NCBI GenBank assembly: GCA_963851265.1
Contig: CAWKNZ010000007.1
Span: 672,001-736,000 of the forward strand
Direction: 5' to 3'
DNA: 64,000 nucleotides
DNA from: an uncultured Gemmatimonadales bacterium
GTDB lineage: Bacteria > Gemmatimonadota > Gemmatimonadetes > Gemmatimonadales > Gemmatimonadaceae
The notes beneath the pieces are model-generated. The model was not told where the DNA came from and did no database searches. It saw only the letters and a list, made by a program, of their open reading frames with translations. The position numbers and the translations under genes are program-made. Each line of letters starts with the position of its first letter. Positions within the stretch are counted from its first letter, which is position 1. Positions 2,717 to 58,718 of this stretch are shown here, piece after piece.

Positions 2717-2719
2717 CGC

Positions 2720-3655
2720 CTAACGCGGCGCTCCCGCGCCGAGCCACCGGTTAAGGATCGGCTTGTACGCGTCCACGCGCCGGTCGCGCAGGAACGGCCA
2801 GTTGCGCCGCACCTCCTCCTGCAGCCGCGGGTCGCACGTGTGCACCAGGACGGCCTCCTCGGTGCCCGCCTCCGCGACCACGCGCCCGAACGGGTCGGCG
2901 ATGAACGAGTGGCCGAAGAACTCGAGTCCGTTGGTCCCCGGCTCGTCCTCGTGCCCGACGCGGTTGGGCGACGCCGTCCACACGCCGTTGGCGATCGCGT
3001 GCGCGCGCTGCGCCGTGCGCCACGCCTCGACCTGCGCCTGCCCCCACTCGTCCTTCTCGGCCGGGTGCCAGCCGATGGCCGTCGGGTAGAAGAGCACGTC
3101 CGCGCCTAACAGCGCGGTGATGCGCGCCGCCTCCGGGTACCACTGGTCCCAGCAGACGAGGACGCCGACGGTCGCGTAGCGCGTCTTCCAGACCATGAAG
3201 CCGTTGGCGCGGCCCGGCTGCTCGCCGTGGTAGTCGAGGTGCGCGTCGCCCGGCGTGAAGTAGTACTTCTCCTCGAACATCGGGTCGTGCGGGATGTGCA
3301 TCTTGTCGTACACGCCGAGCAGCGAGCCGTCGGCGTCGATCACGACCGCCGAGTTCATGTAGAGGCCCGCGGCGCGCCGCACGAACAGCGGCACGATGAT
3401 CACCACGGCCAGCTCCCGCGCGAGCGCCTGGAAGCGGTCGGTCGTCGGCCCCGGCACCGGCTCGGCCAGGTCGAAGTGCTCGACCTTCGTCGACTTGGCG
3501 AAGTAGGGCGTGTTGAAGAGTTCCTTGAGGCAGATGATCTGCGCGCCGCGGCGCGCCGCCTCGCGGACGAGGGCCTCAGCACGCGCGACGTTCGCCGGGG
3601 CGTCGTCGCTCGCGTGGTCCTGGATGATGCCGATGGTGAACGGGTCGCGGCGCAT
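2720..3655 (-). CDS. aguB: Carbon-nitrogen hydrolase, N-carbamoylputrescine amidase-like
   Basis: Nitrilase triad E (LKELF), K (DKMHIP), C (VCWDQWYPE); adjacent to aguA; ATG at 3655. Confidence 0.85.
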   Translation of the reverse strand: MRRDPFTIGIIQDHASDDAPANVARAEALVREAARRGAQIICLKELFNTPYFAKSTKVEHFDLAEPVPGPTTDRFQALARELAVVIIVPLFVRRAAGLYMNSAVVIDADGSLLGVYDKMHIPHDPMFEEKYYFTPGDAHLDYHGEQPGRANGFMVWKTRYATVGVLVCWDQWYPEAARITALLGADVLFYPTAIGWHPAEKDEWGQAQVEAWRTAQRAHAIANGVWTASPNRVGHEDEPGTNGLEFFGHSFIADPFGRVVAEAGTEEAVLVHTCDPRLQEEVRRNWPFLRDRRVDAYKPILNRWLGAGAPR

Positions 3656-3798
3656 GGCGGGCAATGTAGCCCCCATCGGTAACGCGGGACCGCGCGGCCC
3701 CGCGTCCGGACGCCCGGCCGCGCGGACACCCGGGCAACGCTTAACGCCCGCGCCGCCAGGGCGTCGAACGCGCGGTACACACCTTCCGGACTCCGCGC

Positions 3799-6911: not shown

Positions 6912-8260
6912 CTCGTCCTGATCGCGACGACCACGTCCGCGACGTTCGTTCCGGTCGGAGCCGCGGGCAGCAGCGCGCCGGCCGCCCCGAGCGCGTCGGA
7001 GCTGCGGTGCGCGGCGAGGTCGGCGTCCGGGTCGCGGCCCGCCGCGCGCACACGCGCCCAGGTCGCGCCGTCGACCACCGCACCGGCCGCGTCGGTCGGG
7101 CCGTCGCGCCCGTCCGTGCCGGCGGCGAGCAGCGTCACCTCGCTCGCGTGCGGCGCGGCCGCATGGAGCGTGGCGGCGGCCGCGAGCGCGAATTCCTGCA
7201 TTCGACCGCCGCGAGCGTCCGGGGCTCCGCCGAGCGTGACGACCGGCTCGCCGCCCCAGACGTGCACCGTGTCGGGGGGACTCTCGAGCAGCACACCGGC
7301 GAGCGATCTGCCGAGCACGGCCGCCTCGCCCGCGAGCCAGTCGGCGTGGTCGATGACGGCATAGCCTAACGCGCGCGCCGCATCGGCCGCCGCGGCCCGG
7401 GCGTCGGCGTTGGCGCGCACGATCTGCAGCCGGACGCCCGCGAACGCCGGGTCGCCCGGCTTGGGCGTTTCGGCGCGCCACCTCTCGTCGGTCGCGTCGG
7501 CGACCGCCGCGACGGGCGGCGTGAGGTACCGCCGCACCGCGGGCGGGAGTGCCGGCCACACCGGGCCCGGCGCGAGCGTGTCGTGCAGCAGCGCCGCGGT
7601 CCACGGGTCGGGCGCGCACGGCCCCGAGCCGATCACGGCGGGCTCGTCGCCCGGAACGTCGCTCAGCATGAGGCAGAGGACGCGCGCGGGGGCGAGGGCC
7701 CGGGCGAGGCGCCCCGCGCCCCATCGACTCACGCGCTTGCGGACCGCGTTCACGACGTCGATCGGCACGCCGGCGCCGAGCAGGGTGCTGGACGTCGCGG
7801 CGACGTCGGCGGGCGTGAGCAGGGGGTCGACCGGCGCGCCGATCAGGCTCGACGTGCCGCCCGAGACGAGCACGAGGGCGAGGTCGAGCGGCCCGACGCG
7901 GGCAGCCGCGTCGCCGAGTGCGGCCGCGGCCGCGACCGAGCGGTCGCCGGGAATCGGATGGTCACCGACCACCACGCGCACGGCGGAGTTCGGCGGCGGG
8001 GCGTCACGGTGCGCGACCACGACGCCTCCGGCAACGTCCACGCCGCGCTCGGCGAGTGCGTCGACGGCGGCGCGGGCCATCTCGTGCGCGGCCTTGCCGA
8101 CGGCCAGCAGGTGCACGGCGTCGTCGCCCGTGAGGGCGTACGACGCGAGCGCGGCCGCGACCGCCGGGCCCGGTTGGGCGCCTGCGATCGCGGCCGCGTG
8201 GCAGGTCGAGAGGGCCGACCGTGCGCGCGACTCCGGAGAGATCGGCCGCGGGTCGGTCAC
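6908..8260 (-). CDS. Glycerate 2-kinase / hydroxypyruvate reductase family (DUF4147 + MOFRL)
   Basis: LAVGKAA, GDHPIP, LVSGGTSSL, LSDVPGD..VIGSGP, GGRMQE, GTDGRDG and TGTNVAD motifs; probable GTG at 8260. Confidence 0.9.
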   Translation of the reverse strand: MTDPRPISPESRARSALSTCHAAAIAGAQPGPAVAAALASYALTGDDAVHLLAVGKAAHEMARAAVDALAERGVDVAGGVVVAHRDAPPPNSAVRVVVGDHPIPGDRSVAAAAALGDAAARVGPLDLALVLVSGGTSSLIGAPVDPLLTPADVAATSSTLLGAGVPIDVVNAVRKRVSRWGAGRLARALAPARVLCLMLSDVPGDEPAVIGSGPCAPDPWTAALLHDTLAPGPVWPALPPAVRRYLTPPVAAVADATDERWRAETPKPGDPAFAGVRLQIVRANADARAAAADAARALGYAVIDHADWLAGEAAVLGRSLAGVLLESPPDTVHVWGGEPVVTLGGAPDARGGRMQEFALAAAATLHAAAPHASEVTLLAAGTDGRDGPTDAAGAVVDGATWARVRAAGRDPDADLAAHRSSDALGAAGALLPAAPTGTNVADVVVAIRTS

Positions 8261-11140: not shown

Positions 11141-13939
<2,799 letters not shown>

Positions 13940-17618: not shown

Positions 17619-19205
17619 ATGTCTGCCACGATCGATCCGACCACCACCGGGACCGCGGGCGCCGACGACGCCGTCCGCCACGCGACGCTTCCCGACGGCG
17701 CGCGCAAGTACGCGATCAGCATCCCGATCAAGGCGCGCTACGACAACTGGATCGGTGGGACGTACGTGCCGCCGGCGAAGGGGCAGTACTTCGGCAACCC
17801 CTCGCCGATCACGGGCCAGCACCTGTGCGACGTGGCCCGCTCGACGGCGGAGGACGTGGAGCGCGCGCTCGACGCGGCGCACGCGGCCGCGCCCGCGTGG
17901 GGCCGGACGTCGCCGGCGGAGCGCGCGAACATGCTGAACAAGATCGCCGACCGGGTGGAGCAGAACCTCGAGGCGCTCGCCGTGATCGAGACGATCGACA
18001 ACGGGAAGCCGGTGCGCGAGACGGTGAACGCCGACCTCGCGCTCGTCGTGGACCACTTCCGCTACTTCGCCGGGTGCATCCGCGCGCAGGAGGGCGGGCT
18101 GTCGCAGCTGGACGACGACACGGTGGCCTACCACTTCCGCGAGCCGTTAGGCGTGGTCGCGCAGATCATCCCGTGGAACTTCCCGCTGCTGATGGCGACG
18201 TGGAAGCTCGCGCCCGCGCTCGCCGCGGGGAACGCGGTGGTGATCAAGCCGGCCGAGCAGACGCCGGTGAGCATCATGGCGTTCGTCGAACTGATGGCCG
18301 ACCTGATTCCGGCGGGCGTGGTGAACGTGGTGCAGGGCTTCGGGGTCGAGGCCGGCAAGCCGCTCGCGTCGAGCAACCGGGTGGCCAAGGTGGCGTTCAC
18401 GGGCGAGACGACGACGGGGCGCCTCATCATGCAGTACGCCTCGGAGAACCTGATCCCGGTCACGCTGGAGCTGGGCGGCAAGTCGCCCAACATCTTCTTC
18501 AGCGACGTGATGCGCGAGGACGACGACTACTTCGACAAGGCGCTCGAGGGGTTCGCCATGTTCGCGCTGAACCAGGGCGAGGTGTGCACCTGCCCGAGCC
18601 GCGCGCTCGTGCAGGAGGACATCTACGACCGGTTCATGGAGCGCGCGCTCGCGCGCGTGGGCAAGATGGTGCAGGGGCACCCGCTCGACCCGACGACGAT
18701 GGTCGGCGCGCAGGCGAGCAACGACCAGCTCGAGAAGATCCTCAGCTACTTCGACATCGGCCGCAAGGAAGGGGCGAAGGTCCTGATCGGCGGCGACCGC
18801 GCGACGCTCGGCGGCGAGCTGGCCGAGGGCTACTACGTGCAGCCGACCGTCTTCGAGGGACACAACAAGATGCGGGTGTTCCAGGAGGAGATCTTCGGGC
18901 CGGTGGTGTCGGTGACCACGTTCAAGACCGCCGACGAGGCGCTCGAGCTCGCGAACGACACGCTGTACGGGTTGGGCGCGGGCGTGTGGTCGCGCGACGG
19001 CAACACGGCGTACCGCATGGGACGCGGCATCAAGGCGGGGCGCGTGTGGACCAACTGCTACCACCTGTACCCGGCGCACGCGGCGTTCGGCGGCTACAAG
19101 CAGAGCGGTGTGGGGCGCGAGAACCACGCGATGATGCTCGACCACTACCAGCAGACGAAGAACCTGCTCGTCAGCTACAGCCCGAAGGCGCTCGGGTTCT
19201 TCTGA
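17619..19205 (+). CDS. NAD-dependent acetaldehyde dehydrogenase (ExaC/AcoD/AldB-type)
   Basis: [41 protein letters not shown] and NLLVSYS..LGFF. Confidence 0.93.
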
Positions 19206-19621: not shown

Positions 19622-21975
19622 GCACGCGCGTCGGCGTACCGCGTCTCGTGGCGCCGCTGGTTGGGCTGTTGGGTGCGGCGGCCGGCGCGCAGGTCCCGGG
19701 CGCGCCCGCGCCACACGCCGCGGCGCGCGACACCGCGACACGTGACTCTGCCACACGTCACGCCGCGGTCCGTGACACGAGCGCGCGGCACGCGCCGGCG
19801 CGGCTCTCGCCCGTGGTCGTCGTCGCCGGGCGCCTGACGCGACCGGCCGGCGGGGCCGGGGCGGCCGCGCGCGTTGACGAGGCCGGGCCCGACGCGCGCA
19901 CGGCCGCGCGGCCGCCGGTGGGCGGGCCTGCGCCCGCGGCCGCCCTGCTGGCGCGCCTGCCCGGCGTGAGCAGCTTCGACGACCAGGGCACGCGCGCGCA
20001 GCCCACCCTCGACGTGCGCGGGTTCACGCTGTCGCCGGTGGTGGGCGTTGGGCAGGGGGTGAGCGTGTTCCTCGACGGCGTGCGCGTGAACGAGGCGGAC
20101 GCGCAGGAGGTGAACTTCGACCTGCTGCCGGCCGAGGCGGTGCGCGGGGCCGAACTCGTGCGCGGGCCGTCGGCGCTGTACGGCAAGAACACGTTAGGCG
20201 GTGCGCTCGTGCTCACGACGCGCCGCGGCGGCGACGGCGGCCCCGCGCTCGACGCCGGTGCGGACGCCGGCGCGTTCGGGCAGCGGGGGGTGCGGTTCGC
20301 GGCGTCGGGCGCGCGCCCGTTGGGCGCGCCGGCCGTGGGCGGCGCGGCCGTCGACGGCTACGTGCTCGCGCGGTCGTCGCGGGAGGACGGGTGGCGCGAC
20401 GCGACCGCGGCGCGGCGGCAGCTGCTGTTCGCGACGGGGGGGCGGCGCGACGCCTCGGGCGACGTCGCGCTCTCGGTGCTCGCGGCCCGCGACTCGCTGG
20501 GCCAGGCCGGCTCGCTGCCCGAGAGCTGGCTCGCCGCGGGGGGCGACGCGGCACGGCGCGCCAACTACACGCCCGGCGACTGGTACGCGCCGACCACCCT
20601 CGAAGTCGCCCTGCGCGGCCGGCGGCGGGTGGGCGCCCCCGACGCGTCCGCGTCCGAGGTGCGCGGCACGCTGTTCGTGCGTGACACCCGGAGCGGGCAG
20701 TTCAACGTGAACGCGGACGCGCCGAGTACGCTGGCGCGGGTGGTCGCGGCCAGCGCGGGCGGGACGGTCGAGGGGGAGCGGCGGACCCGCCTGTTGGGCA
20801 CCCCACTCGTCGCGATCGTGGGGGGCGAGGTCTCGCGCGACGCCGTGCGCTACCGCGTGTTCGAGCGCGCGTCGGGGCCGTCGCGGTCGGCGCAGCCCGA
20901 CGACGCGTGCGCGCCGGCCGCGTCGTCGGGCGGCGACGCGCTCTGCGAGGACGCGACGGCGAACGCGCTCAACGGGGCGGCGTTCGCGCAGGGAGTGCTG
21001 GCGCCGGGCGGGCGCGTCTCGCTCGTCGCGAGTTTGCGCGCCGACTGGGTGCGGGTGCCGTTCGTCGACCGCCAGACCCCGGCGAACTCGGGCACGAGCG
21101 CGTTCCGGCAGCTCTCGCCGCGCGTGGGCGTGACCGTGACGCCGGCGCCCGCCTGGCGCGCGTACGCGACCGTCGGGACGGGATTCCGCGCGCCGGCGGC
21201 GGTCGAGCTCGCCTGCGCCGACCCGTCGAGCCCCTGCCCGCTCCCGTTCTCGTTAGGCGACGACCCGCCGCTGCGGCCCGTCCGCGTGCGCAACGCGGAG
21301 GCGGGCGCGGACTGGACGCCCGCGCCGCTCGTCGCGTTCACGGCGAGCGCGTTCCGCGCCGACGTGCGCGACGAGATCCTGCTCGTCGCGAGCGAACGCA
21401 CCGCGGGGTACTTCACGAACTTCCCGCGCACGCGCCGCGCGGGGCTGGAGCTGACGGCGCGCGCCGGGCCGGCGCCCGGGGGACGCGCCGGCGGCGTGTC
21501 GGCGTTCGCGTCGTGGGCCCTCGTGCGCGCGACCTACGAGGCCGACGGGCTGCTAGCGTCGGCGCGCGCGACGCCGGACTCGGTGCACCCCGGCGACCGG
21601 CTGCCTCTCACGCCCGAGACGCGTGCGACGGCCGGGGTGCGCGCGGAAGGGCGCGCCGGGGGGGTTGCGTTAGGCGCGGAACTGTCGGCGTCGGCCGTCG
21701 GGCCGCAGCGCATGCGCGGCGACGAGGGCGGGGCCGGGGCGCCGCTGCCGGGCTACGCGCTCACCGCGCTCGGCCTCAGCGCGGCGCGCGGCCGGGTGCG
21801 GGCCGACGTGTCGGTGTGCAACCTGTTCGACCGGCGGTACGTGACGTTCGGGACGTGGGCACCGAACGCGCTCGCCCCGGACCGGCAGCGGCTCGTGGGT
21901 GGGGAACGGGTGGAGCGCTTTCTCACACCCGGGTACCCGCGCGCCGTGGCGATCGGCGTGAGCGTGGCCCGGTAG
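19618..21975 (+). CDS. TonB-dependent outer-membrane receptor
   Basis: GTGA overlap with DUF779; plug RGFTLSP...DGVRVNE...YGKNTLGGAL; GFRAP, NLFDRRY and a terminal beta-strand. Confidence 0.88.
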   Translation: MSTRVGVPRLVAPLVGLLGAAAGAQVPGAPAPHAAARDTATRDSATRHAAVRDTSARHAPARLSPVVVVAGRLTRPAGGAGAAARVDEAGPDARTAARPPVGGPAPAAALLARLPGVSSFDDQGTRAQPTLDVRGFTLSPVVGVGQGVSVFLDGVRVNEADAQEVNFDLLPAEAVRGAELVRGPSALYGKNTLGGALVLTTRRGGDGGPALDAGADAGAFGQRGVRFAASGARPLGAPAVGGAAVDGYVLARSSREDGWRDATAARRQLLFATGGRRDASGDVALSVLAARDSLGQAGSLPESWLAAGGDAARRANYTPGDWYAPTTLEVALRGRRRVGAPDASASEVRGTLFVRDTRSGQFNVNADAPSTLARVVAASAGGTVEGERRTRLLGTPLVAIVGGEVSRDAVRYRVFERASGPSRSAQPDDACAPAASSGGDALCEDATANALNGAAFAQGVLAPGGRVSLVASLRADWVRVPFVDRQTPANSGTSAFRQLSPRVGVTVTPAPAWRAYATVGTGFRAPAAVELACADPSSPCPLPFSLGDDPPLRPVRVRNAEAGADWTPAPLVAFTASAFRADVRDEILLVASERTAGYFTNFPRTRRAGLELTARAGPAPGGRAGGVSAFASWALVRATYEADGLLASARATPDSVHPGDRLPLTPETRATAGVRAEGRAGGVALGAELSASAVGPQRMRGDEGGAGAPLPGYALTALGLSAARGRVRADVSVCNLFDRRYVTFGTWAPNALAPDRQRLVGGERVERFLTPGYPRAVAIGVSVAR

Positions 21976-28283: not shown

Positions 28284-29255
28284 ATGAACGGCGCCCTCCT
28301 CCGCGAATCAACCGCCGTCCGCACCGCGCGAGCGTCGGGGCGGCCGGTGGTCCTCCTCGAGAGTTCGGTGCTCGCGCAGGGGCTGCCCATTCCCGCCAAC
28401 CGCGAGGCCGCGGACCGCATGGTCGCGGCCGTGCGCGGCGCCGGCGCCGAGCCCGCGATCAGCGCCGTCGTGCGCGGCAGGCCCGCGCTCGGGCTCGAGG
28501 ACGACGAGCTCGAACGGTTCCTCGCCCGCGACGGCGTGCGCAAGGTGAGCGCGCGCGACCTCGCCGCCGCCATGCTCGACCGGGCCGACGGGGCGACCAC
28601 GGTCGCGGCCTCGCTCGCCCTCGGCCGGCTCGCGGGCGTGCCGGTGTTCGCCACGGGCGGAATCGGCGGCGTGCACCGCGATCTGCCCGGGACGCCCGGC
28701 GCGGGCGCGCCGACGGCCGGCGGGGTGCGCGACGAGTCCGCCGACCTGCTCGAGCTGGCGCGCGCGCCGATGGTCGTCGTCTGCGCCGGGGCGAAGTCGA
28801 TCCTCGACCTGCCCGCGACGCTCGAGCGGCTCGAGACGCTCGGCGTGCCCGTGGTCGGGTACCGCACGCGCCGGCTGCCGGGCTTCTTCACGGCCGACGC
28901 GGGGCTCCCGGTGCCGCACACGGTCGAGCGCGCGGGCGACGTCGCGGCGCTCTGGCGCCACCAGCAAGCGTTAGGCAGGTCGGAGGCCGTGCTCGTCGTG
29001 CAGCCGCCGCCCGCGGACGCGGCGCTGCCGGCCGCCGTGGTCGACGGCGCGGTGGCCGAAGCGCTCGCCGCGGCGGGGCGCGACGGGGTGAGCGGGGCGG
29101 CGGTGACGCCCTACCTCCTCGGCGCGGTGGAGCGCGCCACGGGCGGTCGTTCGCTCGCCGCCAACCTCGCCCTGCTCGAAGCCAACGCGCGGCTGGCCGC
29201 CGAGATCGCGCGCGAGATCGCGCGCGATCTGGCGGCGGCCCCGCCCGACGCCTAA
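28284..29255 (+). CDS. psuG: Pseudouridine-5'-phosphate glycosidase
   Basis: LESSVLAQGLP, GATTVA, FATGGIGGVHR, ESADL, GAKSILD and VTPYLL. Confidence 0.92.
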   Translation: MNGALLRESTAVRTARASGRPVVLLESSVLAQGLPIPANREAADRMVAAVRGAGAEPAISAVVRGRPALGLEDDELERFLARDGVRKVSARDLAAAMLDRADGATTVAASLALGRLAGVPVFATGGIGGVHRDLPGTPGAGAPTAGGVRDESADLLELARAPMVVVCAGAKSILDLPATLERLETLGVPVVGYRTRRLPGFFTADAGLPVPHTVERAGDVAALWRHQQALGRSEAVLVVQPPPADAALPAAVVDGAVAEALAAAGRDGVSGAAVTPYLLGAVERATGGRSLAANLALLEANARLAAEIAREIARDLAAAPPDA

Positions 29256-29265
29256 CGCATCGCCG

Positions 29266-32559: not shown

Positions 32560-32568
32560 GGCGCGCCG

Positions 32569-36470: not shown

Positions 36471-36715
36471 TCGAGTTCGACGCGGTCTCCAAGCGCTACG
36501 ACGGTATCGGCCGGCGCGCGGTCGACGCGATGACCGCGGCCACCCTCACGGTGCGCCGCGGCGAGGTGTCGGGCGCCGCCGGGCCTAACGGAGCGGGGAA
36601 AGGCACGCTCATCGGCCCGTTGCTCGGGCACCTGCAGCCGAGCGCGGGCGCGGTCCGCGCGTACGTACTGACCGCCGGCGTCGCCGTCCTGCGCCGGCGC
36701 CCGATCTCCACCTGA
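36467..36715 (+). pseudogene. ABC ATPase N-terminal fragment fused to a permease-like C-terminal tail
   Basis: IEFDAVSKRY...VRRGEVSGAAGPNGAGKGTLI..LLGHLQPSAGAVR followed by AYVLTAGVAVLRRRPIST*; no signature motif or Walker B; begins at CTG. Confidence 0.8.
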
Positions 36716-36726: not shown

Positions 36727-39354
36727 GTGCACGCTGCCCCGCTGTTCGACCCCGCGACCGTCACCCGCCGGCGCCTCGCCAACGGCCTCACCGCCGTCGT
36801 GCGGCGAGACACGTCCGCCCCCGTCGTCGCGATCAACACCTTCGTCGCGGCCGGCTACTTCGACGAGCCCGACCCCGTCACCGGCGTGGCGCACGTGCTG
36901 GAGCACATGTTCTTCAAGGGCACGCCGCGGCGCGGCGTGGGCGAGATCGCGAAGCAGACCAAGGCCGAGGGCGGCTACCTCAACGCGCACACCATCTACG
37001 ACCACACGAGCTACTACGCCGTGCTGCCGTCGTCGGGGTTCCGCGAAGGGCTCGACATCCAGGCGGACGCCTACGCCAACTCGCTCGTCGACGCGGGCGA
37101 GCTGGCGAAGGAGTTGGAGGTCATCATCCAGGAGGCGAAGCGCAAGCTCGACAACCCGTCGGCGGTGACGGTCGAGTCGCTCTACGCGCTGCTGCACGAC
37201 CGCCACCGCGTGCGCCGCTGGCGCATCGGCACCGAAGACGGACTGCGCCGCCTCACGCGTGACGACGTCGACGGCTTCTACCGGACGTACTACCGCCCGT
37301 CCAACACGGTGCTCGCCGTCGTCGGCGACGTCGACCCCGACGAGGCGTTCGGCGAGATCGAGCGGCGTTACGGGGCGTTGCCGAACGGCAACGTGCCGCG
37401 CGACCGCGGACCCGCGGAGGACGGTCCGGTCGCGTCCGGCCCGCGTTACCTGGAGCTCGACGGCGACGTGCGGCAGGCGCAGCTCGCGCTCGGCTGGCGC
37501 ACGCCGGGCACGTTCGATCCCGACACGCCGCGACTCGATCTCGCCGCCGCGGTGCTCGGCACGGGGCGCGCGTCGCGCCTGTACCGCGCGGTGCGCGAGC
37601 GCTCGCTCGCGTCGTCCATCGGCGCGTACGACAGCACGCCGGTCGAACTCGGGATCTTCGTCGTACACGCCGAGGGCGACGCGGCGCGGCTGGTCGGTGC
37701 GGCGCGCGCCGCGTGGGCCGAGGTCGCCGGTCTGCGCGCCGACGGCGTGGGCGCGGACGAGCTGGACCGCGTGCGGCGCATCCTCGAGGCGCGCTCCCTC
37801 CGCCGGCTCGAGACGATGGAGGGGCAGGCGAGCTGGCTGGCCGAGTGGGAGGCGTTAGGCGGCTGGGAGCGCGGCGAGCGCTACCACGCGGCGCTGCTCG
37901 CGGCCACGCCCGACGAGGTCACCGAGGCCGCGCGCCGCTGGCTCGCGCCCGAAGCGGCGGGGGCGGTAGTCTACCGGCCGCGCGGGACCGCGCCCGTGGC
38001 TGCCGACGCGGCCGCGTTCTTCGGCCTCATCGGCGGCGCCGCCGCGGCCGGCGTGCCGCCCGCGGCACCCGCTCCGGCGCCGGCCCGGTTGGCCGCAGCC
38101 CCCGTGCTCGAGCGCGTCGAGGCCGGCGTGCACGTCTTCCGCACCGACGCGGGCGTGCCGGTGCTCGTCGTGCCCCGGGCGGGGCTGCGCATCGTCCACC
38201 TCGCCGCGTCGGCGTTCGGCGGGGCGGTGGCCGAGCCCGACGGCGAGGAGGGGCTCAGCGCCCTCGTCGCGGCCGCGAGCGTCAAGGGCACGGGCAGTCG
38301 CGACGCGGCGGCGATCGCCGAGGAGGCCGAACGCCTCGGCGGGAGCGTGGGGGCGAGCGCGGGGGCGGAGAGCACGGGGTGGGGGATCTCGGTGCCGACC
38401 GCGCACTACGCGGCCGCGGCCGAGCTCCTCGCCGACGTGGTGCAGCGCGCGACGTTCCCCGACGCGGCCGTCGAGACCGAGCGCGGCGTCCTCGCGCAGG
38501 AGGCGCGCACGCTGCGGGACGACATGTACCGCTGGCCGATGCGGCTGGCGACCGAGGCCGCGTTCGGCGGACACCCGTACGGGCGCCCGGTCGGCGGCAC
38601 GGAGGCGTCGCTCGCGGGGCTCACGGCCGACCGCGTGCGCGCGTGGCACGCGGCGATCGTCGCCGGCAGCGCGTGGGCCGTCGCGGTGGTGGGCGACGTC
38701 GAGCCGGCCGAGGCGGCGGCGGTCGTGGCCGGCGCGTTCGGCGCGCTGCGCATGGCCGAGCGACCGGCGGTCGCCGCGCCAGCCTGGCCGCGCGAGGTCG
38801 TGGTGCTGGCCGAGGCGCGCGACAAGCGGCAGACCGCGCTCGCGTTGCTCTTTCCGGGCGCCTCGCGGCGCGACCCGGCGCGGATCACGGCCGGGCTGCT
38901 CGCCGGCATCGCGAGCGGGCTCGGCGGCCGCTTCTTCGACGAACTGCGCGACCGGCGGTCGCTCGCCTACACGGTGCACGCGTTCGGCGCACCGCGCGCG
39001 CTCGCGGGGACGTTCGGCGCCTACATCGCGACCTCGCCCGGGCAGGAGGCCGACGCGCGCGCGGGACTGCTGGCGGAGTTCGCGAAGCTGGCCGCCGACG
39101 GCGTCACGCCCGACGAGCTGGCGCGCGCGCAGACGTACGCGTTAGGCACCTACGCCATCGCGCGGCAGGGCGGGGGCGCGGTGCTCGGCGACGTGCTCGA
39201 CGCGTGGCAGGCCGGCGACGGACTGCACGAGCTGGACGAGTACGAGGCGCGGGTGCGGGCCGTCACCACGGACGACGTGCGCGCGTTCGCGGCCGCGCAC
39301 TTCGATCCGGCGCGCCACGTCGAGGGCGTGGTGCGCGGAGCGGACGCGACCTGA
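36727..39354 (+). CDS. M16 (pitrilysin) zinc peptidase, fused two-module
   Basis: HVLEHMFFKGT (HxxEH) and NAHT; the second module lacks the zinc motif. Confidence 0.92.
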   Translation: MHAAPLFDPATVTRRRLANGLTAVVRRDTSAPVVAINTFVAAGYFDEPDPVTGVAHVLEHMFFKGTPRRGVGEIAKQTKAEGGYLNAHTIYDHTSYYAVLPSSGFREGLDIQADAYANSLVDAGELAKELEVIIQEAKRKLDNPSAVTVESLYALLHDRHRVRRWRIGTEDGLRRLTRDDVDGFYRTYYRPSNTVLAVVGDVDPDEAFGEIERRYGALPNGNVPRDRGPAEDGPVASGPRYLELDGDVRQAQLALGWRTPGTFDPDTPRLDLAAAVLGTGRASRLYRAVRERSLASSIGAYDSTPVELGIFVVHAEGDAARLVGAARAAWAEVAGLRADGVGADELDRVRRILEARSLRRLETMEGQASWLAEWEALGGWERGERYHAALLAATPDEVTEAARRWLAPEAAGAVVYRPRGTAPVAADAAAFFGLIGGAAAAGVPPAAPAPAPARLAAAPVLERVEAGVHVFRTDAGVPVLVVPRAGLRIVHLAASAFGGAVAEPDGEEGLSALVAAASVKGTGSRDAAAIAEEAERLGGSVGASAGAESTGWGISVPTAHYAAAAELLADVVQRATFPDAAVETERGVLAQEARTLRDDMYRWPMRLATEAAFGGHPYGRPVGGTEASLAGLTADRVRAWHAAIVAGSAWAVAVVGDVEPAEAAAVVAGAFGALRMAERPAVAAPAWPREVVVLAEARDKRQTALALLFPGASRRDPARITAGLLAGIASGLGGRFFDELRDRRSLAYTVHAFGAPRALAGTFGAYIATSPGQEADARAGLLAEFAKLAADGVTPDELARAQTYALGTYAIARQGGGAVLGDVLDAWQAGDGLHELDEYEARVRAVTTDDVRAFAAAHFDPARHVEGVVRGADAT

Positions 39355-43434: not shown

Positions 43435-43851
43435 ATGGCTGACCAGTCCGACCGCTCCGAATCGCGCCAACAGGCGCTCAACCCGCACCGCGACGAGGAC
43501 CGCCAGCGCGCGGCCGACGTCGCCTACTCGCAGCTCCGCCAGCGCGGCGTCGACGTCACCGGTGACGAGGACCCCGACGCGCTCGCCGACATCCTCGAGT
43601 CCGTCGAGCGCTTCGAGAACGCCGTCTCGATGCTCGGCGCCGACCGCATGACCAACGCGCCCGACAGCGCGCAGCCCGACGACCGCCGCCTCGTGCTCCC
43701 CCCGCGGCTCGACGGCGAGGCGCCCGCGACCTACGCGCGCCGCATCCGCTCGGCGGCCGACGGCATCCAGAGCCGCGCGCCGGCCGACGCGCCGGCCCAG
43801 GGCGCGGGCGACGCCGCGTTAGGCGGTCTGGCCGCCGACGCGCAGGGCTGA
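43435..43851 (+). CDS. Hypothetical protein (138 aa)
   Basis: LRQRGVDVTGDE...LESVERFE.AV..LGAD; good codon bias. Confidence 0.75.
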   Translation: MADQSDRSESRQQALNPHRDEDRQRAADVAYSQLRQRGVDVTGDEDPDALADILESVERFENAVSMLGADRMTNAPDSAQPDDRRLVLPPRLDGEAPATYARRIRSAADGIQSRAPADAPAQGAGDAALGGLAADAQG

Positions 43852-47127: not shown

Positions 47128-47247
47128 GCGCCCGCCGGGCGCGGCGTTAGGCGCGGGCGCGCCGGCCGGAAATGCGAACGCCCCCGAGTGCGGGGGCGCT
47201 GCGGACGTGCGGGCTCGGCGGGCGATCGGTGCCGGGCGGTGCTGACG

Positions 47248-52594: not shown

Positions 52595-54262
52595 ATGGCC
52601 ACCTACGCCCCCACCGCGCCGCTCGCGGCGCCCACGCGCGACGTCGCGATCAAGGACGTGCGCGGCGTCATCTTCGCCGCCTCGCTCGGCACCGTGTTCG
52701 AGTGGTACGACTTCTACCTGTACGGCTCGCTCGCGGCGATCATCTCGAAGCAGTTCTTCTCGGGCGTCAACCCGACGGCCGGCTTCGTGTTCGCGCTGCT
52801 CGCCTTCGCCGCCGGCTTCGCCGTCCGCCCGTTCGGCGCGGTCGTCTTCGGCCGGCTCGGCGACCTCGTCGGGCGCAAGTACACGTTCCTGGTCACGATC
52901 CTCATCATGGGCTTCTCGACCTTCCTGGTCGGGGTGCTCCCGTCGTACGCGTCGATCGGCGTGATCGCGCCCATCGCGCTCGTCACCCTGCGGCTGCTGC
53001 AGGGCCTCGCGTTAGGCGGCGAGTACGGCGGCGCGGCGACGTACGTGGCCGAGCACGCGCCCAACGGGAAGCGCGGCAGCTACACGGCGTGGATCCAGAC
53101 GACCGCGACGCTCGGCCTCTTCCTCTCGCTCCTCGTGATCCTCGGCTGCCGCGTCGTGCTCGGCACCGAGCAGTTCGAGGCCTGGGGCTGGCGCATCCCG
53201 TTCGCCGTCTCGCTCGTGCTGCTCGCGGTCTCGACGTGGATCCGGCTCCGCCTGGACGAGAGCCCGATGTTCCGGCAGATGAAGGCCGAGGGGAAGGGGT
53301 CGAAGTCGCCGCTCAAGGACTCGTTCGGCAACTGGGGCAACCTCAAGCTCGTGCTGCTCGCGCTGTTCGGGCTCGCGATGGGGCAGGCGGTGGTGTGGTA
53401 TACCGGGCAGTTCTACGCGCTGTTCTTCCTGACCCAGATGCTGAAGGTGGACGCGCAGAGCGCGAACCTGATGGTCGCCGCGGCGCTCCTGCTCGCCACG
53501 CCGTTCTTCATCGTGATGGGCGCGCTGTCGGACCGGATCGGGCGCAAGCCGGTCATCCTCGGCGGGTGCCTCGTCGCCGCGCTCACGTACTTCCCGCTGT
53601 TCAAGGCGCTCACCCACTACGCCAACCCCGCGCTCGAGCAGGCGCAGACGACCGCGCCGGTGACGGTCGTCGCCGACCCCAACGCGTGCTCGTTCCAGTT
53701 CGACCCGGTGGGTAAGGCCAAGTTCACGTCGAGCTGCGACGTGGCGAAGGCGGCGCTCGTCAAGGCGGGCGTGCCGTACGTGAACCAGGCCGCGGCGGCC
53801 GGCAGCGTCGCGCAGGTGACGGTGGGCAGCACCGCGCTGCCGTCGTACGACGGCAAGGCGCCCGACGCCAAGGCCCGCGGGGCCGCGTTCGACAAGGCGT
53901 TAGGCGGTGCGCTCAAGTCGGCGGGCTACCCGGCCAAGGCCGACCCCACGCGCGTCAACACGCCGATGGTCATCGCCGTGCTGTTCGTGCTCGTGCTCTA
54001 CGTGACGATGGTCTACGGGCCGATCGCCGCGATGCTCGTCGAGATGTTCCCCACGCGCATCCGCTACACCTCGATGTCGCTCCCCTACCACATCGGGAAC
54101 GGCTGGTTCGGCGGCTTCCTGCCGACGACGGCGTTCGCGATCGTCGCCGCGACGGGCAACCTGTACTCGGGGCTCTGGTACCCGATCATCATCGCGGCCA
54201 TCACGGTCGTCATCGGCGCGCTGTTCGTGCGCGAGACGCGGACGGTCGACATCCGCGGCTGA
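52595..54262 (+). CDS. MFS transporter, metabolite:H+ symporter family
   Basis: GTVFEWYDFYLY, FGRLGDLVGRK, RLLQGLALGGEYGGA and EMFPTRIRY. Confidence 0.92.
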   Translation: MATYAPTAPLAAPTRDVAIKDVRGVIFAASLGTVFEWYDFYLYGSLAAIISKQFFSGVNPTAGFVFALLAFAAGFAVRPFGAVVFGRLGDLVGRKYTFLVTILIMGFSTFLVGVLPSYASIGVIAPIALVTLRLLQGLALGGEYGGAATYVAEHAPNGKRGSYTAWIQTTATLGLFLSLLVILGCRVVLGTEQFEAWGWRIPFAVSLVLLAVSTWIRLRLDESPMFRQMKAEGKGSKSPLKDSFGNWGNLKLVLLALFGLAMGQAVVWYTGQFYALFFLTQMLKVDAQSANLMVAAALLLATPFFIVMGALSDRIGRKPVILGGCLVAALTYFPLFKALTHYANPALEQAQTTAPVTVVADPNACSFQFDPVGKAKFTSSCDVAKAALVKAGVPYVNQAAAAGSVAQVTVGSTALPSYDGKAPDAKARGAAFDKALGGALKSAGYPAKADPTRVNTPMVIAVLFVLVLYVTMVYGPIAAMLVEMFPTRIRYTSMSLPYHIGNGWFGGFLPTTAFAIVAATGNLYSGLWYPIIIAAITVVIGALFVRETRTVDIRG

Positions 54263-54272
54263 GCGCCTTGGA

Positions 54273-54387: not shown

Positions 54388-55992
54388 ATGCGATACTCGC
54401 CTCCCTGGCCCGGCGCGGCAGTCCGCGCGGTGGCAACACTCGCGGCCGTCGGCCTGACGGCGATCGCGCCGCCTGCGCCGCTCGCCGCACAGCCGGTACG
54501 GCTCGGCGAGGTGAGCTTCCCCGTGTCCGCGACCGGCGCCGCCGCGCGCGAGTTCCGCACGGGCGTGCTCTACCTGCATAGCTTCGAGTACGATTCCGCC
54601 GCGGCCGCGTTCCGCCGCGCGCAGCAGCGCGCGCCGCACTTCGCGATGGCGTACTGGGGCGAGGCGATGACGTACACGCACCCGGTGTGGAACCAGCAGG
54701 ACACGGCCGCCGCCCGCGCCGCGCTCGGCCGCCTCGCCCCGACCCGTGAGGCGCGGCGCGCGGCGGCGGACACCCCGCGCGAGCGCGACTACCTCGACGC
54801 GGTCGAGGTGCTGTACGGTCCGGGCCCGAAGGCCGCGCGCGATACGGCGTACGCGGCGGCGATGGCGCGCGTGGCCGCCGCACACCCCGAAGACGCCGAG
54901 GCCCAGACGTTCTTCGCGCTCGCGCTGCTGGGGCTCAACCAGGGCGAGCGCGACGTGCCCACGTACATGCGCGCGGCCGCCATCGCCGGTCCGGTCTTCG
55001 CGGCCCATCCGACGCACCCGGGCGCGGCGCACTACCTCATCCACGCGTTCGACGACCCCGCCCACGCGCCGCTCGGGCTTCCCGCGGCGCGCGCCTACTC
55101 GGGCATCGCCCCCGACGCGCCGCACGCGCAGCACATGACGTCGCACATCTTCCTCGCGCTCGGCATGTGGGACGCGACGGTGCACGCCAACGAGGTCGCG
55201 AGCACCTACCACGACTCGGCCGGGCGCTCCCTGCACCTCACCTGCGGACACTACGGCGAGTGGCTGCAGTACGCCTACCTGCAGCAGGGACGTCCGAAGG
55301 CGGCCGCGAACGTCATGGCCGAATGCGGCGCCCAGATCCGCAACGCGCGGAACTCCCGCCCGCAGATGGGCCGGTCGTCGTTGGCGCACATGCGCGCGGT
55401 TCAGATCGTCGACGGGATGGTCGACACCGCGCCCGCGGCCGGCGACTCGGCCGGACTGTCCGCGTACGGTCGCGCCTTCGTCGCGCTCGGCGACGCGCAC
55501 GCCGCGGCGCATCGCGGCGACACGGCCACGCTGCGGACCGCCCGCGCCACGCTCGCCGGGCTGCCCGACGCACTGCCGTCCGGCTACGGCGAGATCGCGA
55601 CGCGCCAGACCGACGGACTGCTCGCGCGCGCCACAGGGGATAGCGCCGCCGCGCTGGCCGCACTGCGCCGGGCCGCGGCCGTCGAAGACAGCCTGCCGGT
55701 GGAGTTCGGTCCGCCGCTCGTCGTCAAGCCCTCCCACGAGCTGCTCGGCGAGACGCTGCTCGCGCTCGGCCGCCCGGCGGACGCGCGCGTCGAGTTCGAT
55801 CGCCAGCTCACCCGCACCCCGCGGCGCGCCGCGACGCTGCTCGACCTCGCGCGGGCGGCCCGCGCCGCCGGCGACCCGGCCCGCGCCGCGACGGCGCTCG
55901 CCGAGCTCGCCGACGTGTCGCGGCACGCGGAGCCCGACGCGCCCGTGCGGGCCGCGCTCGCGGCGGGGGCGGGGCGTACGGCCGAGCGTTAG
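54388..55992 (+). CDS. Secreted TPR-like protein with a conserved His-rich core
   Basis: Signal peptide; LHSFEY, MAYWGEAM, HPGAAHYLIHAFD and HAQHMTSHIF. Confidence 0.8.
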   Translation: MRYSPPWPGAAVRAVATLAAVGLTAIAPPAPLAAQPVRLGEVSFPVSATGAAAREFRTGVLYLHSFEYDSAAAAFRRAQQRAPHFAMAYWGEAMTYTHPVWNQQDTAAARAALGRLAPTREARRAAADTPRERDYLDAVEVLYGPGPKAARDTAYAAAMARVAAAHPEDAEAQTFFALALLGLNQGERDVPTYMRAAAIAGPVFAAHPTHPGAAHYLIHAFDDPAHAPLGLPAARAYSGIAPDAPHAQHMTSHIFLALGMWDATVHANEVASTYHDSAGRSLHLTCGHYGEWLQYAYLQQGRPKAAANVMAECGAQIRNARNSRPQMGRSSLAHMRAVQIVDGMVDTAPAAGDSAGLSAYGRAFVALGDAHAAAHRGDTATLRTARATLAGLPDALPSGYGEIATRQTDGLLARATGDSAAALAALRRAAAVEDSLPVEFGPPLVVKPSHELLGETLLALGRPADARVEFDRQLTRTPRRAATLLDLARAARAAGDPARAATALAELADVSRHAEPDAPVRAALAAGAGRTAER

Positions 55993-55999
55993 GCGCGCG

Positions 56000-57955
56000 A
56001 TGGTGCCCGAACCCGCGTCGCCCACGCCGCCGCCCGCCGGCGCCGACCTCCGCACCCTCCTGGCCGGGGAGGCGCCGATCCCGGCCCCCGCGTGGCTCGC
56101 CGAGCGCGCCCCGGTGGACTACGACGCCGAGCGCGCGCGCGCGGCGGCCGACCCGGACGCGTTCTGGGCGGAGCAGGCCGGTGCCGTCGAGTGGGCCGCG
56201 CCGTGGCACACGGTGCGCCGCTTCGAGCCCCCCGAGCACGCGTGGTTCGAGGGCGGGCGCCTCAACGTGACCGTCAGCTGCCTCGACCGGCACGCCAGGG
56301 GCGAGCGGCGGACCAAGGCCGCGCTCATCTGGCTCTCCGAGGACGGCGACGAACGCACCTACACCTACGGCCGCCTGTACCGGGAGGTCAACCGCTTCGC
56401 CAACGCGCTCGCGTCGTTAGGCGTGGGCGCGGGCGACCGCGTCGTCCTCTACATGCCCAACACGCCCGAGGGCGTGGTCGCGATGCTCGCCTGCGCGCGG
56501 CTGGGGGCGATCCACTCGGTCGTCTACGCGGGGATCGGCGCGGGCGCGCTGCGCGCGCGCATCGAGGACGCGGGCGCGAAGGCGGTGGTCTGCTCCGACT
56601 ACACCTACCGGCGCGGCAAGCCGGTCCCGCTCAAGCCGATCGTCGACGAGGCCGTGCGCGGGCTGGCCTTCGTGGAGCACGTCGTCGTCCACCGCCGCGG
56701 CTCGCGCCCGGGCGACGCGCCCGCGGGGTTCGCCCCGGCCGCGTTCAGCTCGGAGCGCGAGGTCGACTTCTACGACGTGCAGGCGCCGCACGCGATCCGC
56801 CGCGAGCCCGCGATGGTCGACGCCGAACACCCGCTGTTCATCCTCTACACGTCGGGCACGACGGGGCGGCCCAAGGGCGTGGTGCACACCACGGGCGGAT
56901 ACCTCGTCGGCGTGACCTACCTCGCGCGCGCCTTCCTCCAGCTGGGCGAGCGCGACGTCTACTACTGCACGTCCGACCTCGGCTGGGCCGTGGGGCACTC
57001 GTACATCGTGTACGGCCCGCTGTCGATCGGCGCGACGGTGGTCTTCCGCGAGGGCGCGCCCGACTGGCCCACCGCCGACGTGACGTGGGAGCTGGTCGAG
57101 CGCTTCGGCGTCGACGTGATGTTCACGGCGCCGACGGCGGTGCGCATGTGGATGAGCCACGGCGCGGAGGCGCCCGCCAAGTTCGACCTGTCGCGCCTGC
57201 GGCTGCTCGCCTGCGCCGGAGAGCCGCTCAACCCGGAGGCGCACCGCTGGGCGCAGCGGAACCTCGTGGGGCAGGGCGACGGCTTCGTCGTCGACAACTG
57301 GTGGCAGACCGAGATCGCCGCGCCGGTGCTCGCGACCTTCCCGGCGTTCGAGGCGCGGCCCGGGCGGGTGGGCAAGCCCGTGCCCGGGGCGGAGGTCGCG
57401 GTGGTCGACGCGGCGGGCCGGCCGCTGCCGCCCAACACGGGCGGACTGCTGGTACTCACGGCGCCGCTCCCGTGGATGCTGCGCACCATCTGGAACGACC
57501 ACGCGCGCTACGCCGCGTACTGGCAGCAGATCCCGGGCGTCTACACGGCGGGCGACGTCGCGGTGATCGACGAGGACGGCTACGTCGCGGTGTTGGGCCG
57601 CGCGGACGACGTGCTCAACGTCGCGGGGCACCGCATCGGGACGGCCGACGTGGAGGGCTCGCTCCTGCGGCACCCCGCGGTGGCCGAGAGCGCCGTGGTC
57701 GGGCTGCCCGACCCGATCCGGGGGGAGCGGATCAAGGCGTTCGTGGTCGTGCGCGCGGGACACCCGGCCGGGCCGGCGCTGATCGCCTCGCTGAAGGACC
57801 ACGTTAGGCAGGACCTCGGCCCGATCGCGCAGCCGAGCGAGGTCGAGGTGCGCGCGTCGCTGCCGAAGACCCGCTCGGGGAAGATCGTGCGGCGGATGCT
57901 GAAGGCGGAGGCGATGGGGGTGGACCCGGGGGACCTGAGCACGCTCGCGGATTGA
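56000..57955 (+). CDS. Second acetate/propionate--CoA ligase
   Basis: YTSGTTGRPKG, DLGWAVGHSY, CAGEP, DNWWQTE and [11 protein letters not shown]. Confidence 0.9.
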   Translation: MVPEPASPTPPPAGADLRTLLAGEAPIPAPAWLAERAPVDYDAERARAAADPDAFWAEQAGAVEWAAPWHTVRRFEPPEHAWFEGGRLNVTVSCLDRHARGERRTKAALIWLSEDGDERTYTYGRLYREVNRFANALASLGVGAGDRVVLYMPNTPEGVVAMLACARLGAIHSVVYAGIGAGALRARIEDAGAKAVVCSDYTYRRGKPVPLKPIVDEAVRGLAFVEHVVVHRRGSRPGDAPAGFAPAAFSSEREVDFYDVQAPHAIRREPAMVDAEHPLFILYTSGTTGRPKGVVHTTGGYLVGVTYLARAFLQLGERDVYYCTSDLGWAVGHSYIVYGPLSIGATVVFREGAPDWPTADVTWELVERFGVDVMFTAPTAVRMWMSHGAEAPAKFDLSRLRLLACAGEPLNPEAHRWAQRNLVGQGDGFVVDNWWQTEIAAPVLATFPAFEARPGRVGKPVPGAEVAVVDAAGRPLPPNTGGLLVLTAPLPWMLRTIWNDHARYAAYWQQIPGVYTAGDVAVIDEDGYVAVLGRADDVLNVAGHRIGTADVEGSLLRHPAVAESAVVGLPDPIRGERIKAFVVVRAGHPAGPALIASLKDHVRQDLGPIAQPSEVEVRASLPKTRSGKIVRRMLKAEAMGVDPGDLSTLAD

Positions 57956-57992
57956 GCGGGCGCGCCCGCGCAGCCCCGGTTAGCGTTCCCCC

Positions 57993-58718
57993 GTGCCCGC
58001 GCCCGCCGCCCCGCCCCCCGCCCTCGAAGCGCTCGCCCTGGCCCGCCGCTACGGCCCGCGCCGCGCCGTGGACGGCGTGAGCTTCGCGCTCGCCCCGGGC
58101 GACTGCCTCGCCCTGTTCGGGCCCAACGGGGCGGGGAAGAGCACCCTGCTCAAGATGCTCGGCGGCCTGCTCCGCCCCTCGAGCGGCGAGGCGCGCGTCG
58201 CCGGACGCGCGGTCGGCGGCGACGACGGCGCGGCGCGGGGGTCGGTCGGCCTCATCTCGCACCAGAGCCAGCTCTACGCCGCGCTCACCGCCCGCGAGAA
58301 CGTCGCCTTCGCGGCGCGCCTCTACGGCGTGCCCGATCCCGACGCGGCCGCGCTGCGCGCCCTCGAGCAGCTCCGGGTCGCCGACCGCGCCGACACGCCC
58401 GTGCGGCGCCTCTCGCGCGGGCTGCAGCAGCGCGTCTCGATCGCGCGCGCGGTCGTCCACGCGCCCGCCGTCCTCCTCTGCGACGAGCCCTACACCGGCC
58501 TCGACACGGTCGGCGCGGACGCGCTCACCGCGACGCTCACGGCGTTGCGGGCGGGCGGCGCCGCCCTGGTGCTCGTCACGCACCAGTTAGGCGAGGGACT
58601 CGCGCTCGCCACGCAGGTCGCCGTGCTCGTGGCCGGGCGCCTCGCGCACCACGCGCCGCGCGCGGCCGTCGACGACGCCGCGTTCGTCGACGCGTACCGC
58701 GCGCTCGCCGCGGCCTGA
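57993..58718 (+). CDS. ccmA: Heme ABC exporter ATPase
   Basis: GPNGAGKST, LSRGLQQR and CDEPYTGLD; upstream of ccmB and ccmC. Confidence 0.85.
   Translation: MPAPAAPPPALEALALARRYGPRRAVDGVSFALAPGDCLALFGPNGAGKSTLLKMLGGLLRPSSGEARVAGRAVGGDDGAARGSVGLISHQSQLYAALTARENVAFAARLYGVPDPDAAALRALEQLRVADRADTPVRRLSRGLQQRVSIARAVVHAPAVLLCDEPYTGLDTVGADALTATLTALRAGGAALVLVTHQLGEGLALATQVAVLVAGRLAHHAPRAAVDDAAFVDAYRALAAA

Follow-up and report, generated by a model that had tools for sequence, protein, structure and literature searches.

To our knowledge, well-known examples of highly iterated words that have reshaped the coding sequences of bacteria are few, namely, the DNA uptake sequence (DUS), the uptake signal sequence (USS), and HIP1. 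DUS and USS are described as evenly spaced, free of orientation bias, located inside and outside genes, and present at hundreds to more than 1,000 copies per Mb (PMC1939737). HIP1 (GCGATCGC) is highly iterated, conserved in position, and spaced, and it has been proposed as a cross-species uptake signal (PMC13756078). Here, we describe the word YGTTAGGC, found in a 64,000-nucleotide stretch of DNA (the window; positions 672,001 to 736,000 of contig CAWKNZ010000007.1) from an uncultured member of the Gemmatimonadaceae and followed through its host genome (G000; 4.6 Mb, 12 contigs, 73% GC) and beyond. Its best acetyl-CoA-synthetase-like matches (74 to 81% identity) come for the most part from members of the Gemmatimonadaceae, in keeping with that placement. 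The word is real, selected or driven, and it is a signal at the DNA level and not a protein or codon constraint. It belongs to none of the families that we tested, and its behavior is closest to that of DNA uptake sequences and HIP1.

The first-pass annotation of the window had counted 26 exact GTTAGGC or GCCTAAC copies, 24 of which are CGTTAGGC, and both the number and the positions proved correct (Table 1). Dinucleotide shuffles of the window gave means of 2.5 and 1.33, respectively, and the observed counts were reached in 0 of 100. The frames that it assigned also held, with 20 copies reading TTA-GGC (Leu-Gly) on the coding strand, three supplying stop codons, one reading GTT-AGG, one reading CCT-AAC in a remnant whose G-P-N-G-A-G-K stretch confirms the frame, and one being intergenic; 2 of the 26 lie outside called genes. 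Genes of G000 were called with our own hexamer caller (3,823 genes), and gene starts are therefore approximate. Genome-wide, there are 1,762 GTTAGGC, 1,396 CGTTAGGC, and 243 TGTTAGGC, and no other 7-mer has a higher order-2 Markov ratio than GTTAGGC (18x). Each of the 12 contigs has 27 to 41 copies of the 8-mer per 100 kb, about equally on the two strands. The sites are divided into 995 TTA-GGC, 200 antisense CCT-AAC, 72 antisense CTA-ACN, and 23 GTT-AGG, the remainder being 123 TAA stops, 72 TAG stops, and 277 intergenic copies. Compared to a synonymous null, all four usable coding frames are enriched 9- to 127-fold (observed/null, 991/7.8 for TTA-GGC, 195/14 for CCT-AAC, 72/8.1 for CTA-ACN, and 23/0.8 for GTT-AGG), and the 1,281 coding copies compare with 58 to 82 after shuffles that keep both proteins and codon usage. 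Of the 1,290 TTA codons of G000, 991 fall inside the word. Gene ends of the form GCC-stop-C use TAA in half of the cases (128 TAA versus 128 TGA), and tripeptide enrichment in the proteins is small (ALG, 1.11; SLG, 1.19).

Two earlier claims stood only in part. The orientation of the word does track the coding strand, but not as a preference: per opportunity, the 8-mer fills antisense Pro-Asn (167/788) and Leu-Gly (783/4728) alike, and the tie to the coding strand arises because x-Leu-Gly tripeptides are common. Of the two variants said to recur, only GTTGGGC held up, with 32 copies in the window and a 2.6x excess in the genome; GTTAGGT does not recur, with 1 copy in the window and 0.88x the expected number in the genome. 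The consensus is sharp, with enrichment limited to a pyrimidine at position -1 and to GTTGGGC; other GTTRRRY cores such as GTTAGAC (1.5x) and GTTAGGT are not enriched, and no extended consensus was found past the first one or two upstream bases.

The sites are unpolarized, spaced, and conserved in position. The absence of replichore polarity, already suspected from the window, extends to both hosts examined: occupancy of Leu-Gly preceded by Ala, Thr, Pro, or Ser is similar for plus-strand and minus-strand genes across the G000 contigs, including 250-kb segments, and 20 samples of the 3.58-Mb contig of G232, a member of the Chthoniobacterales (Verrucomicrobiota), gave 141 forward and 139 reverse copies. 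Pairs of sites at 0 to 100, 100 to 200, and 200 to 300 bp in G000 number 26, 21, and 32 versus null means of 71, 68, and 65, in each case below the minimum of 200 null draws. Expressed by distance to a neighbor, occupancy is 3/279, 11/305, and 30/279 in the same bins and 14 to 26% from 300 bp to 4 kb off a site. Convergent spacers are the richest (67 sites in 55 kb) and divergent spacers the poorest (47 in 162 kb), and genes with atypical codon use have an occupancy of 5% versus 29%. Among 630 Leu-Gly sites shared by 209 orthologs of G000 and its relative G004, the word is present in both at 40, in G000 only at 10, and in G004 only at 48; other rare codons in the same orthologs are conserved at 197 of 2,543 positions. 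A 45-kb block with gidA-, parA-, parB-, and mnmE-like genes (Table 1) is word free, longer than any gap in 300 null draws, and has A/T at 9.0% of third positions versus 4.2 to 4.7% in its flanks. Its orthologs are nearly word free in G001 and G004, and G222 has one site in 80 kb around three parS; no comparable gap was seen in G012, G041, G171, or G232. A general exclusion from the origin or from parS was rejected. Two further regions are also listed in Table 1. The segment of the window with a TonB-dependent receptor and partner genes has no word in G000, and its G004 ortholog, which is close to parB on contig C1 of that genome, has two copies. A 21-kb gap on another G000 contig holds a second parA-like gene with a weak ParB-N neighbor and a 616-residue protein with a DnaA-N-like domain, and it is possibly the partition region of a second replicon.

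Around the sites, the DNA is depleted in A and T. At synonymous third positions, A/T amounts to 3.6% at 25 to 50 bp, 5.3% at 200 to 300 bp, 7.1% at 0.8 to 1.2 kb, and 8.8% at 5 to 8 kb. This GC halo is also present within genes (4.6% near versus 6.7% far; 930 genes, P = 3e-33) and persists for codons at least 100 from the gene start (553 genes, P = 1e-24), while three control words were flat and GTTGGGC had a weak halo. Within genes, a decay length of about 300 bp fits best, the same length scale as neighbor exclusion, and the halo is symmetric, being two sided and on both strands, and deeper around sense-strand sites. In the same aligned codons, motif-poor relatives were nearly flat (0.14 to 0.17), whereas G000 climbed from 0.02 to 0.09. 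When scored against a genome's own sites and those of the other genome, the halo was -0.98 versus -0.54 in G000 and -1.24 versus -0.78 in G004, and at lineage-specific sites it tracked own sites (Fisher P = 0.028, with G004 as the single comparison species), which points to a direction from site to halo, with some memory. Differences of the C-G type between G000 and G004 were constant with distance (0.27 to 0.29), while weak-strong differences rose from 0.049 to 0.117. Eleven transition codon pairs had odds ratios of 0.45 to 0.67 near sites, and three transversion pairs were not lowered (AGG/CGG, 0.97 with a confidence interval of 0.78 to 1.20; ATA/ATC, 0.89; AGA/CGA, 1.58). Since both transition and transversion differences fall near sites at fourfold positions, specificity for transitions hangs on these three rare codon pairs. 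The halo was not significant in small samples of G004 and G001 and was borderline in pooled loci (P = 0.012, 0.053, and 0.067).

The distribution of the word is patchy. Of 40 Gemmatimonadales relatives, 12 carried 177 to 6,360 copies of the 8-mer, above control, 2 were intermediate (173 and 194), and 26 had 3 to 65. More than 170 copies were present in 8 of 150 genomes sampled across the phylum, and motif-rich genomes, with densities of 300 to 1,250 8-mers per Mb, span three families and scattered genera. GTTAGGC is likewise the top 7-mer of a named Chthoniobacterales locus. Around that genome, 31 of 51 genomes (including two unpublished ones) have 161 to 2,498 copies, the weaker of them falling below the reverse-pattern control, and 20 have 4 to 78. 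The lineages use dialects, YGTTAGGC in the Gemmatimonadales versus TCGTTAG(GC), TCGTTAGGC, in the Chthoniobacterales. A collection of 185,579 species was scanned for two copies 340 to 370 bp apart, which gave at least 126 loci, 85 of them from Gemmatimonadota or Verrucomicrobiota as counted by titles; most of the other loci among the matches listed were arrays of attC sites, tandem repeats, or lone pairs. No third lineage was found among four other taxa from the scan, which had 70 to 165 copies, below their own controls, and no substitute dialect word was seen in 25 to 80 kb from each of five motif-poor relatives. Sequencing runs gave shares of only 0.05 to 0.09 and were uninformative. Among 120 virus loci, 80 of which had DNA, the dispersed word was found in 4, and 3 of these 4 gave phage structural genes. 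One of them (G233, locus L831) is a complete 57.8-kb tailed phage with 33 copies, 32 forward and 1 reverse, in which no tyrosine integrase was found; three other phages with the dispersed word were not clearly polar. Many virus contigs among loci L807 to L886 contain attC-like cassette arrays whose core is the same. Different words were observed in two 21.9-kb loci: an Acidimicrobiia locus (L060) has 12 copies of a GCTGAAAG-like word versus about 1 expected, which may represent a further iterated motif or else a family of repeats, and an Armatimonadetes locus (L043) has GATTAAC and GTGATTA 7 to 8 times versus fewer than 1 expected.

The word also conforms to GTTRRRY, the core site of the R-box in integron attC sites. 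It is letter for letter the attC R-box of these bacteria's own integrons, identical over 7 to 8 bases. In G000, the attC hairpins are closed by GCCTAACG/CGTTAGGC and contain compensatory pairs, and 13 of 18 arms read GTTAGGC while 2 of 18 read GTTGGGC, the sole variant enriched genome-wide. The array runs from the end of one contig to the start of another (Table 1), and its intI is interrupted by a large recombinase-like gene. About 10 to 12 attC sites, numerous small toxin-antitoxin-like cassette genes, and insertion sequences were observed in this chromosomal integron. However, attC sites make up about 1% of the G000 copies; the other approximately 99% are single, unpaired, and in ordinary genes, with only 9 opposite-strand pairs at 30 to 200 bp among the 1,762 sites. 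The few copies of motif-poor relatives cluster as attC arrays, and giant repeat proteins or prophages were therefore rejected as the source of those clusters. Arms beside intI in the Chthoniobacterales, which were not selected by the word, start with TC in 13 of 28 and TG in 15 of 28, and TC fits the local dialect. In these intI loci (L333 to L345), motif-rich arms mostly end in GTTAGAT or GTTAGGT, and two poor relatives keep GTTAGGC. The match to attC might be due to chance, yet it reaches the lineage's upstream base or bases. Chromosomal integrons are known to receive cassettes through transformation (PMC12614218), which makes a link to attC plausible.

How does the word compare with the systems introduced above? 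Control loci were drawn from Neisseria (688 kb, 36 of 79 kept after removal of overlapping, short, and motif-poor loci) and the Pasteurellaceae (942 kb, 54 of 79). With densities of 1,411 and 889 per Mb, they showed a 30 to 45% shortage of neighbors up to about 400 bp, as do G232 and G012. Neighbor depletion thus matches DUS and USS and the halo does not, so that the spacing fits an uptake sequence and the halo is new. Like DUS and USS, the word is short and non-palindromic, occurs on both strands with no bias in orientation, within genes as well as outside them, at comparable density, and has dialects; in G000, it is present in all frames and in noncoding DNA, more evenly spaced than expected, and conserved in core genes, and the genome has a type IV pilus, ComEA, ComEC, and DprA. 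Its sequence and hosts differ from those of the Neisseriaceae and Pasteurellaceae, although by analogy it could work like a DUS. It also differs in being common to two phyla, in its patchiness among genera, in its few inverted pairs, and, in the genus of G000, in a sharper exclusion and the halo. HIP1 shares iteration, spacing, and positional conservation but is a methylated palindromic octamer, whereas the word is non-palindromic and AT cored in a 73% GC genome and is not tracked by the one methyltransferase found. Chi sites, read by RecBCD and AddAB, are non-palindromic, linked to recombination, and of similar density. The word-free block around gidA-parA-parB brings to mind nucleoid or occlusion sites such as matS and the SlmA and Noc boxes. 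Those sites, however, are palindromic and follow rules that apply across a region, whereas the gap is shared at the gene level only within the genus and with G222. No account of the word as a genome-wide signal was found in a literature search that left most subscription papers and supplementary oligonucleotide surveys outside its reach.

We then considered which protein might read the word; no tested candidate tracks it. G000 encodes comEC, dprA, and a comEA-pilB-pilT-pilC-like operon, and MutS1, UDG, ComEC, and DprA are present in five of five genomes, rich and poor alike. An orphan basic pilin of the FimU/FimT fold ends in GRVR; its terminal R-x-G-R is invariant, and it is present in 30 of 35 genomes of the family, with vertical inheritance. 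Its predicted structure (predicted local distance difference test score, 94) matches FimU (E = 3e-6) and, weakly, the DNA-binding FimT of Legionella (E = 0.14); a sequence search against solved structures gave nothing below E = 0.4, and ComP_DUS matches were below the cutoff. Pilins of the FimT family serve as receptors for DNA, and one of them has been predicted to recognize USS (PMC12616744). This gene content suggests that the Gemmatimonadaceae are widely naturally competent. An Eco57I-like methyltransferase (1,141 residues) was rejected as the reader, as relatives are found in 34 of 34 Gemmatimonadales searched, rich or poor, and in 0 of 6 rich Chthoniobacterales; it was the one DNA methyltransferase found by a motif scan that may have missed others. 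Such conservation is unusual for a restriction-modification-type gene. IntI was rejected because its presence is unrelated to word abundance in both phyla, and neither AddAB nor RecC tracks abundance. An addAB-like pair of G000 has high identity in G023, but three further members of its genus gave no match to this query; RecBCD is patchy in both phyla. The UDG-linked radical SAM family TIGR03916 tracks the word only in part: G000 has two such genes, one running off the left edge of the window, and it is present in G001, G004, and 13 of 17 motif-rich versus 1 of 16 motif-poor Verrucomicrobiota, but above the cutoff in 0 of 13 other clearly motif-rich Gemmatimonadales. No cross-phylum reader stood out among 260 proteins common to G000 and the sampled Chthoniobacterales DNA (860 kb of G232, about a quarter of that genome, plus other loci).

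The word seems to mark spots of preferential DNA recombination or repair, and whatever multiplies it and biases its flanks must favor the word-bearing copy. A hot spot for cutting would be expected to wear away its own motif, and the halo of a polar Chi should lie on one side only. Our leading reading, held tentatively and at somewhat under even chances, is that the word acts as a donor signal similar to an uptake sequence and spreads by molecular drive. A sequence-specific step of transformation would favor short word-bearing fragments as donors for homologous recombination, and word-bearing alleles would keep replacing wordless ones even where this imposes rare codons. Within the length of one fragment (about 300 bp), a second copy would add little, and sites would space out as a result. 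Repeated heteroduplex at sites, with T:G and A:C mismatches settled toward C:G, would leave a symmetric halo. Donor preference, short fragments, and C:G-ward repair could thus account for count, spacing, conservation, and halo at one length scale, and a reader preference matching the attC R-box common to soil integron cassettes would explain the same word in two phyla. In its full form, in which two phyla independently gained an attC-core reader, probably for drawing in soil gene cassettes or by co-opting integrase specificity, so that chromosomes and phages filled with the word and its copies became local hot spots pushing toward G+C, we find the account doubtful, if possible.

Several observations weigh against an uptake signal. 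The search for a sequence-specific receptor found none, and motif-poor relatives have the competence genes just as motif-rich ones do. The FimT-like pilin does not track the word: no residue or clade separates rich from poor genomes, and the pilin query gave a weak match in only one of six motif-rich Chthoniobacterales. One word common to two phyla cannot mark conspecific DNA, and drive through host transformation does not predict the 33 copies in phage G233, 32 of them on one strand. In the opening 200 bp of genes, sites are scarce, as would suit an intracellular binder. The within-gene halo was not significant in G232 (P = 0.22) or G012 (P = 0.69), the densest genomes tested, and real DUS and USS have no GC halo (paired P = 0.05, in the opposite direction, and 0.31). 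Finally, intI-adjacent arms are exactly GTTAGGC in 3 of 28 cases in motif-rich Chthoniobacterales versus 5 of 6 in the two poor ones.

The strongest competitor, which we nonetheless consider unlikely, is an intracellular binder that, over about 300 bp to either side, guards against C:G-to-T:A change or repairs it, whether it arises from deamination or from a T:G mismatch. Selection would favor the sites as local antimutators with diminishing returns, sustainable in large soil populations, and the binder may double as a nucleoid organizer. The lowered transition-type A/T codons, unmatched by transversion-type ones, speak for it, as do an exclusion in G000 far sharper than that of DUS and USS (9, 22, and 48 versus about 100 per 100-bp bin), the depletion of gene starts and divergent spacers, the carriage of the word by phages, and the occurrence of TIGR03916 in G000, G001, G004, and the rich Verrucomicrobiota. 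The same family, however, is below the cutoff in the other motif-rich Gemmatimonadales, fourfold transversions fall too, the halo is weak or absent in the densest genomes, and no such protein emerged among the 260 shared with the sampled Chthoniobacterales DNA. Less probable still is an integron integrase or a domesticated relative as the reader, with chromosomal copies as docking, decoy, or exchange sites; an integrase-type reader could itself be compatible with either the uptake or the binder model. The attC hairpins and arms of G000 and the attC arrays of motif-poor genomes favor such a reader, and one enzyme specificity in both phyla would explain repeated origins, but among the Gemmatimonadales, rich and poor together, 25 of 41 genomes have intI above the cutoff, and among the Verrucomicrobiota, 13 of 31 rich and 12 of 20 poor genomes do (P = 0.26). 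In G000, the integrase gene is interrupted and a search turned up no additional IntI-like protein. Enrichment does not extend to other GTTRRRY cores, and sites in essential genes would be harmful targets.

Two further explanations strike us as quite improbable, to the same degree. A methyltransferase could mark the word as for HIP1, with methyl-directed repair or methyl-dependent uptake multiplying copies. GCCTAAC, with its penultimate A, presumably fits Type IIG targets. Being spaced, conserved, abundant, and unpolarized, the word resembles HIP1 as described (PMC13756078), but it is non-palindromic, its halo lacks strand asymmetry, and the single methyltransferase found is distributed without regard to it. 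The methylome of Gemmatirosa kalamazoonensis comprises RGATCY, ATGCAC, and CCAGN7TCA only (PMC3974934), which would count against methylation of the word if that strain carries it. Of the three candidates put forward by the first-pass annotation, a HIP1-like methylation target has the least support; an uptake sequence and a protein landing site remain. The other explanation, a Chi-like or replication-direction signal for a translocating enzyme, would suit phage G233, where sense occupancy is 13/43 versus 1/27 antisense (P = 6e-5 versus the G232 ratio). Hosts are unpolarized with a two-sided halo, however, the three other phages are not clearly polar, RecC is present in 12 of 80 genomes, rich and poor, and not in G000, and the G000 AddB was not found in G001, G003, G004, or G012 on a strict first look. 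To an artifact of codon use or composition we assign next to no probability: one frame does hold most copies, but four frames are enriched, the codon-preserving shuffle refutes it, half of the GCC-stop-C ends use TAA, 277 copies are intergenic, and 26 of 40 relatives hold just 3 to 65 copies.

Table 1. Copies of GTTAGGC in the window and other features of the host genome (strand is that of GTTAGGC or of the gene)
Feature	Location	Strand	Context
GTTAGGC	2718..2724	-	TAG stop of minus-strand gene
GTTAGGC	3104..3110	-	TTA-GGC; no preceding C
GTTAGGC	7364..7370	-	TTA-GGC
GTTAGGC	11354..11360	-	TTA-GGC
GTTAGGC	13145..13151	-	TTA-GGC
GTTAGGC	13604..13610	-	TTA-GGC
GTTAGGC	18146..18152	+	TTA-GGC
GTTAGGC	20193..20199	+	TTA-GGC
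GTTAGGC	21252..21258	+	TTA-GGC
GTTAGGC	21669..21675	+	TTA-GGC
GTTAGGC	23361..23367	+	TTA-GGC
GTTAGGC	24666..24672	+	TTA-GGC
GTTAGGC	25894..25900	+	TTA-GGC
GTTAGGC	28970..28976	+	TTA-GGC
GTTAGGC (GCCTAAC on +)	29250..29256	-	TAA stop of plus-strand gene
GTTAGGC (GCCTAAC on +)	36583..36589	-	CCT-AAC (Pro-Asn) in uncalled ABC-ATPase-like remnant
GTTAGGC	37854..37860	+	TTA-GGC
GTTAGGC	39141..39147	+	TTA-GGC
GTTAGGC	43818..43824	+	TTA-GGC
GTTAGGC	47146..47152	+	Intergenic, convergent genes on either side
GTTAGGC	53011..53017	+	TTA-GGC
GTTAGGC	53899..53905	+	TTA-GGC
GTTAGGC	55988..55994	+	TAG stop of plus-strand gene
GTTAGGC	56416..56422	+	TTA-GGC
GTTAGGC	57803..57809	+	GTT-AGG (Val-Arg), two rare codons
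GTTAGGC	58586..58592	+	TTA-GGC; no preceding C
TIGR03916 gene	window 1-674	-	Off left edge
TonB-dependent receptor and partner genes	window 29503-34056		No word
ABC-ATPase remnant	window 36470-36715		Uncalled, apparently degraded; one copy
FimU/FimT-fold pilin	G000:C7:452372-452776 (L717:8372-8776)	-	Orphan
Eco57I-like methyltransferase	G000:C7:582086-585511	-	
addAB-like pair	G000:C3:244500-250300		
Word-free block	G000:C1:182876-227962		gidA-, parA-, parB-, mnmE-like genes
Possible second partition region	G000:C8:256199-260526		In 21-kb gap
Chromosomal integron	G000:C10:188900-215025 and C6:1-6044		attC array

These results add to the known iterated words one that occurs in common soil lineages, crosses phyla, and is identical to the integron core. 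If the account in its full form is correct, the site of a mobile element would have given rise to a signal for uptake or repair that crosses phyla, and the halo would reflect fine-scale, sequence-anchored GC-biased conversion or site-directed repair in bacteria. The halo offers a rare handle on the disputed question of whether recombination or repair raises bacterial G+C. That question can be tested directly at 1,762 anchored sites, as the decay length can be measured and sites have been gained and lost in separate lineages. The word may also aid in transforming these hard-to-engineer groups and in assigning phages to their hosts.

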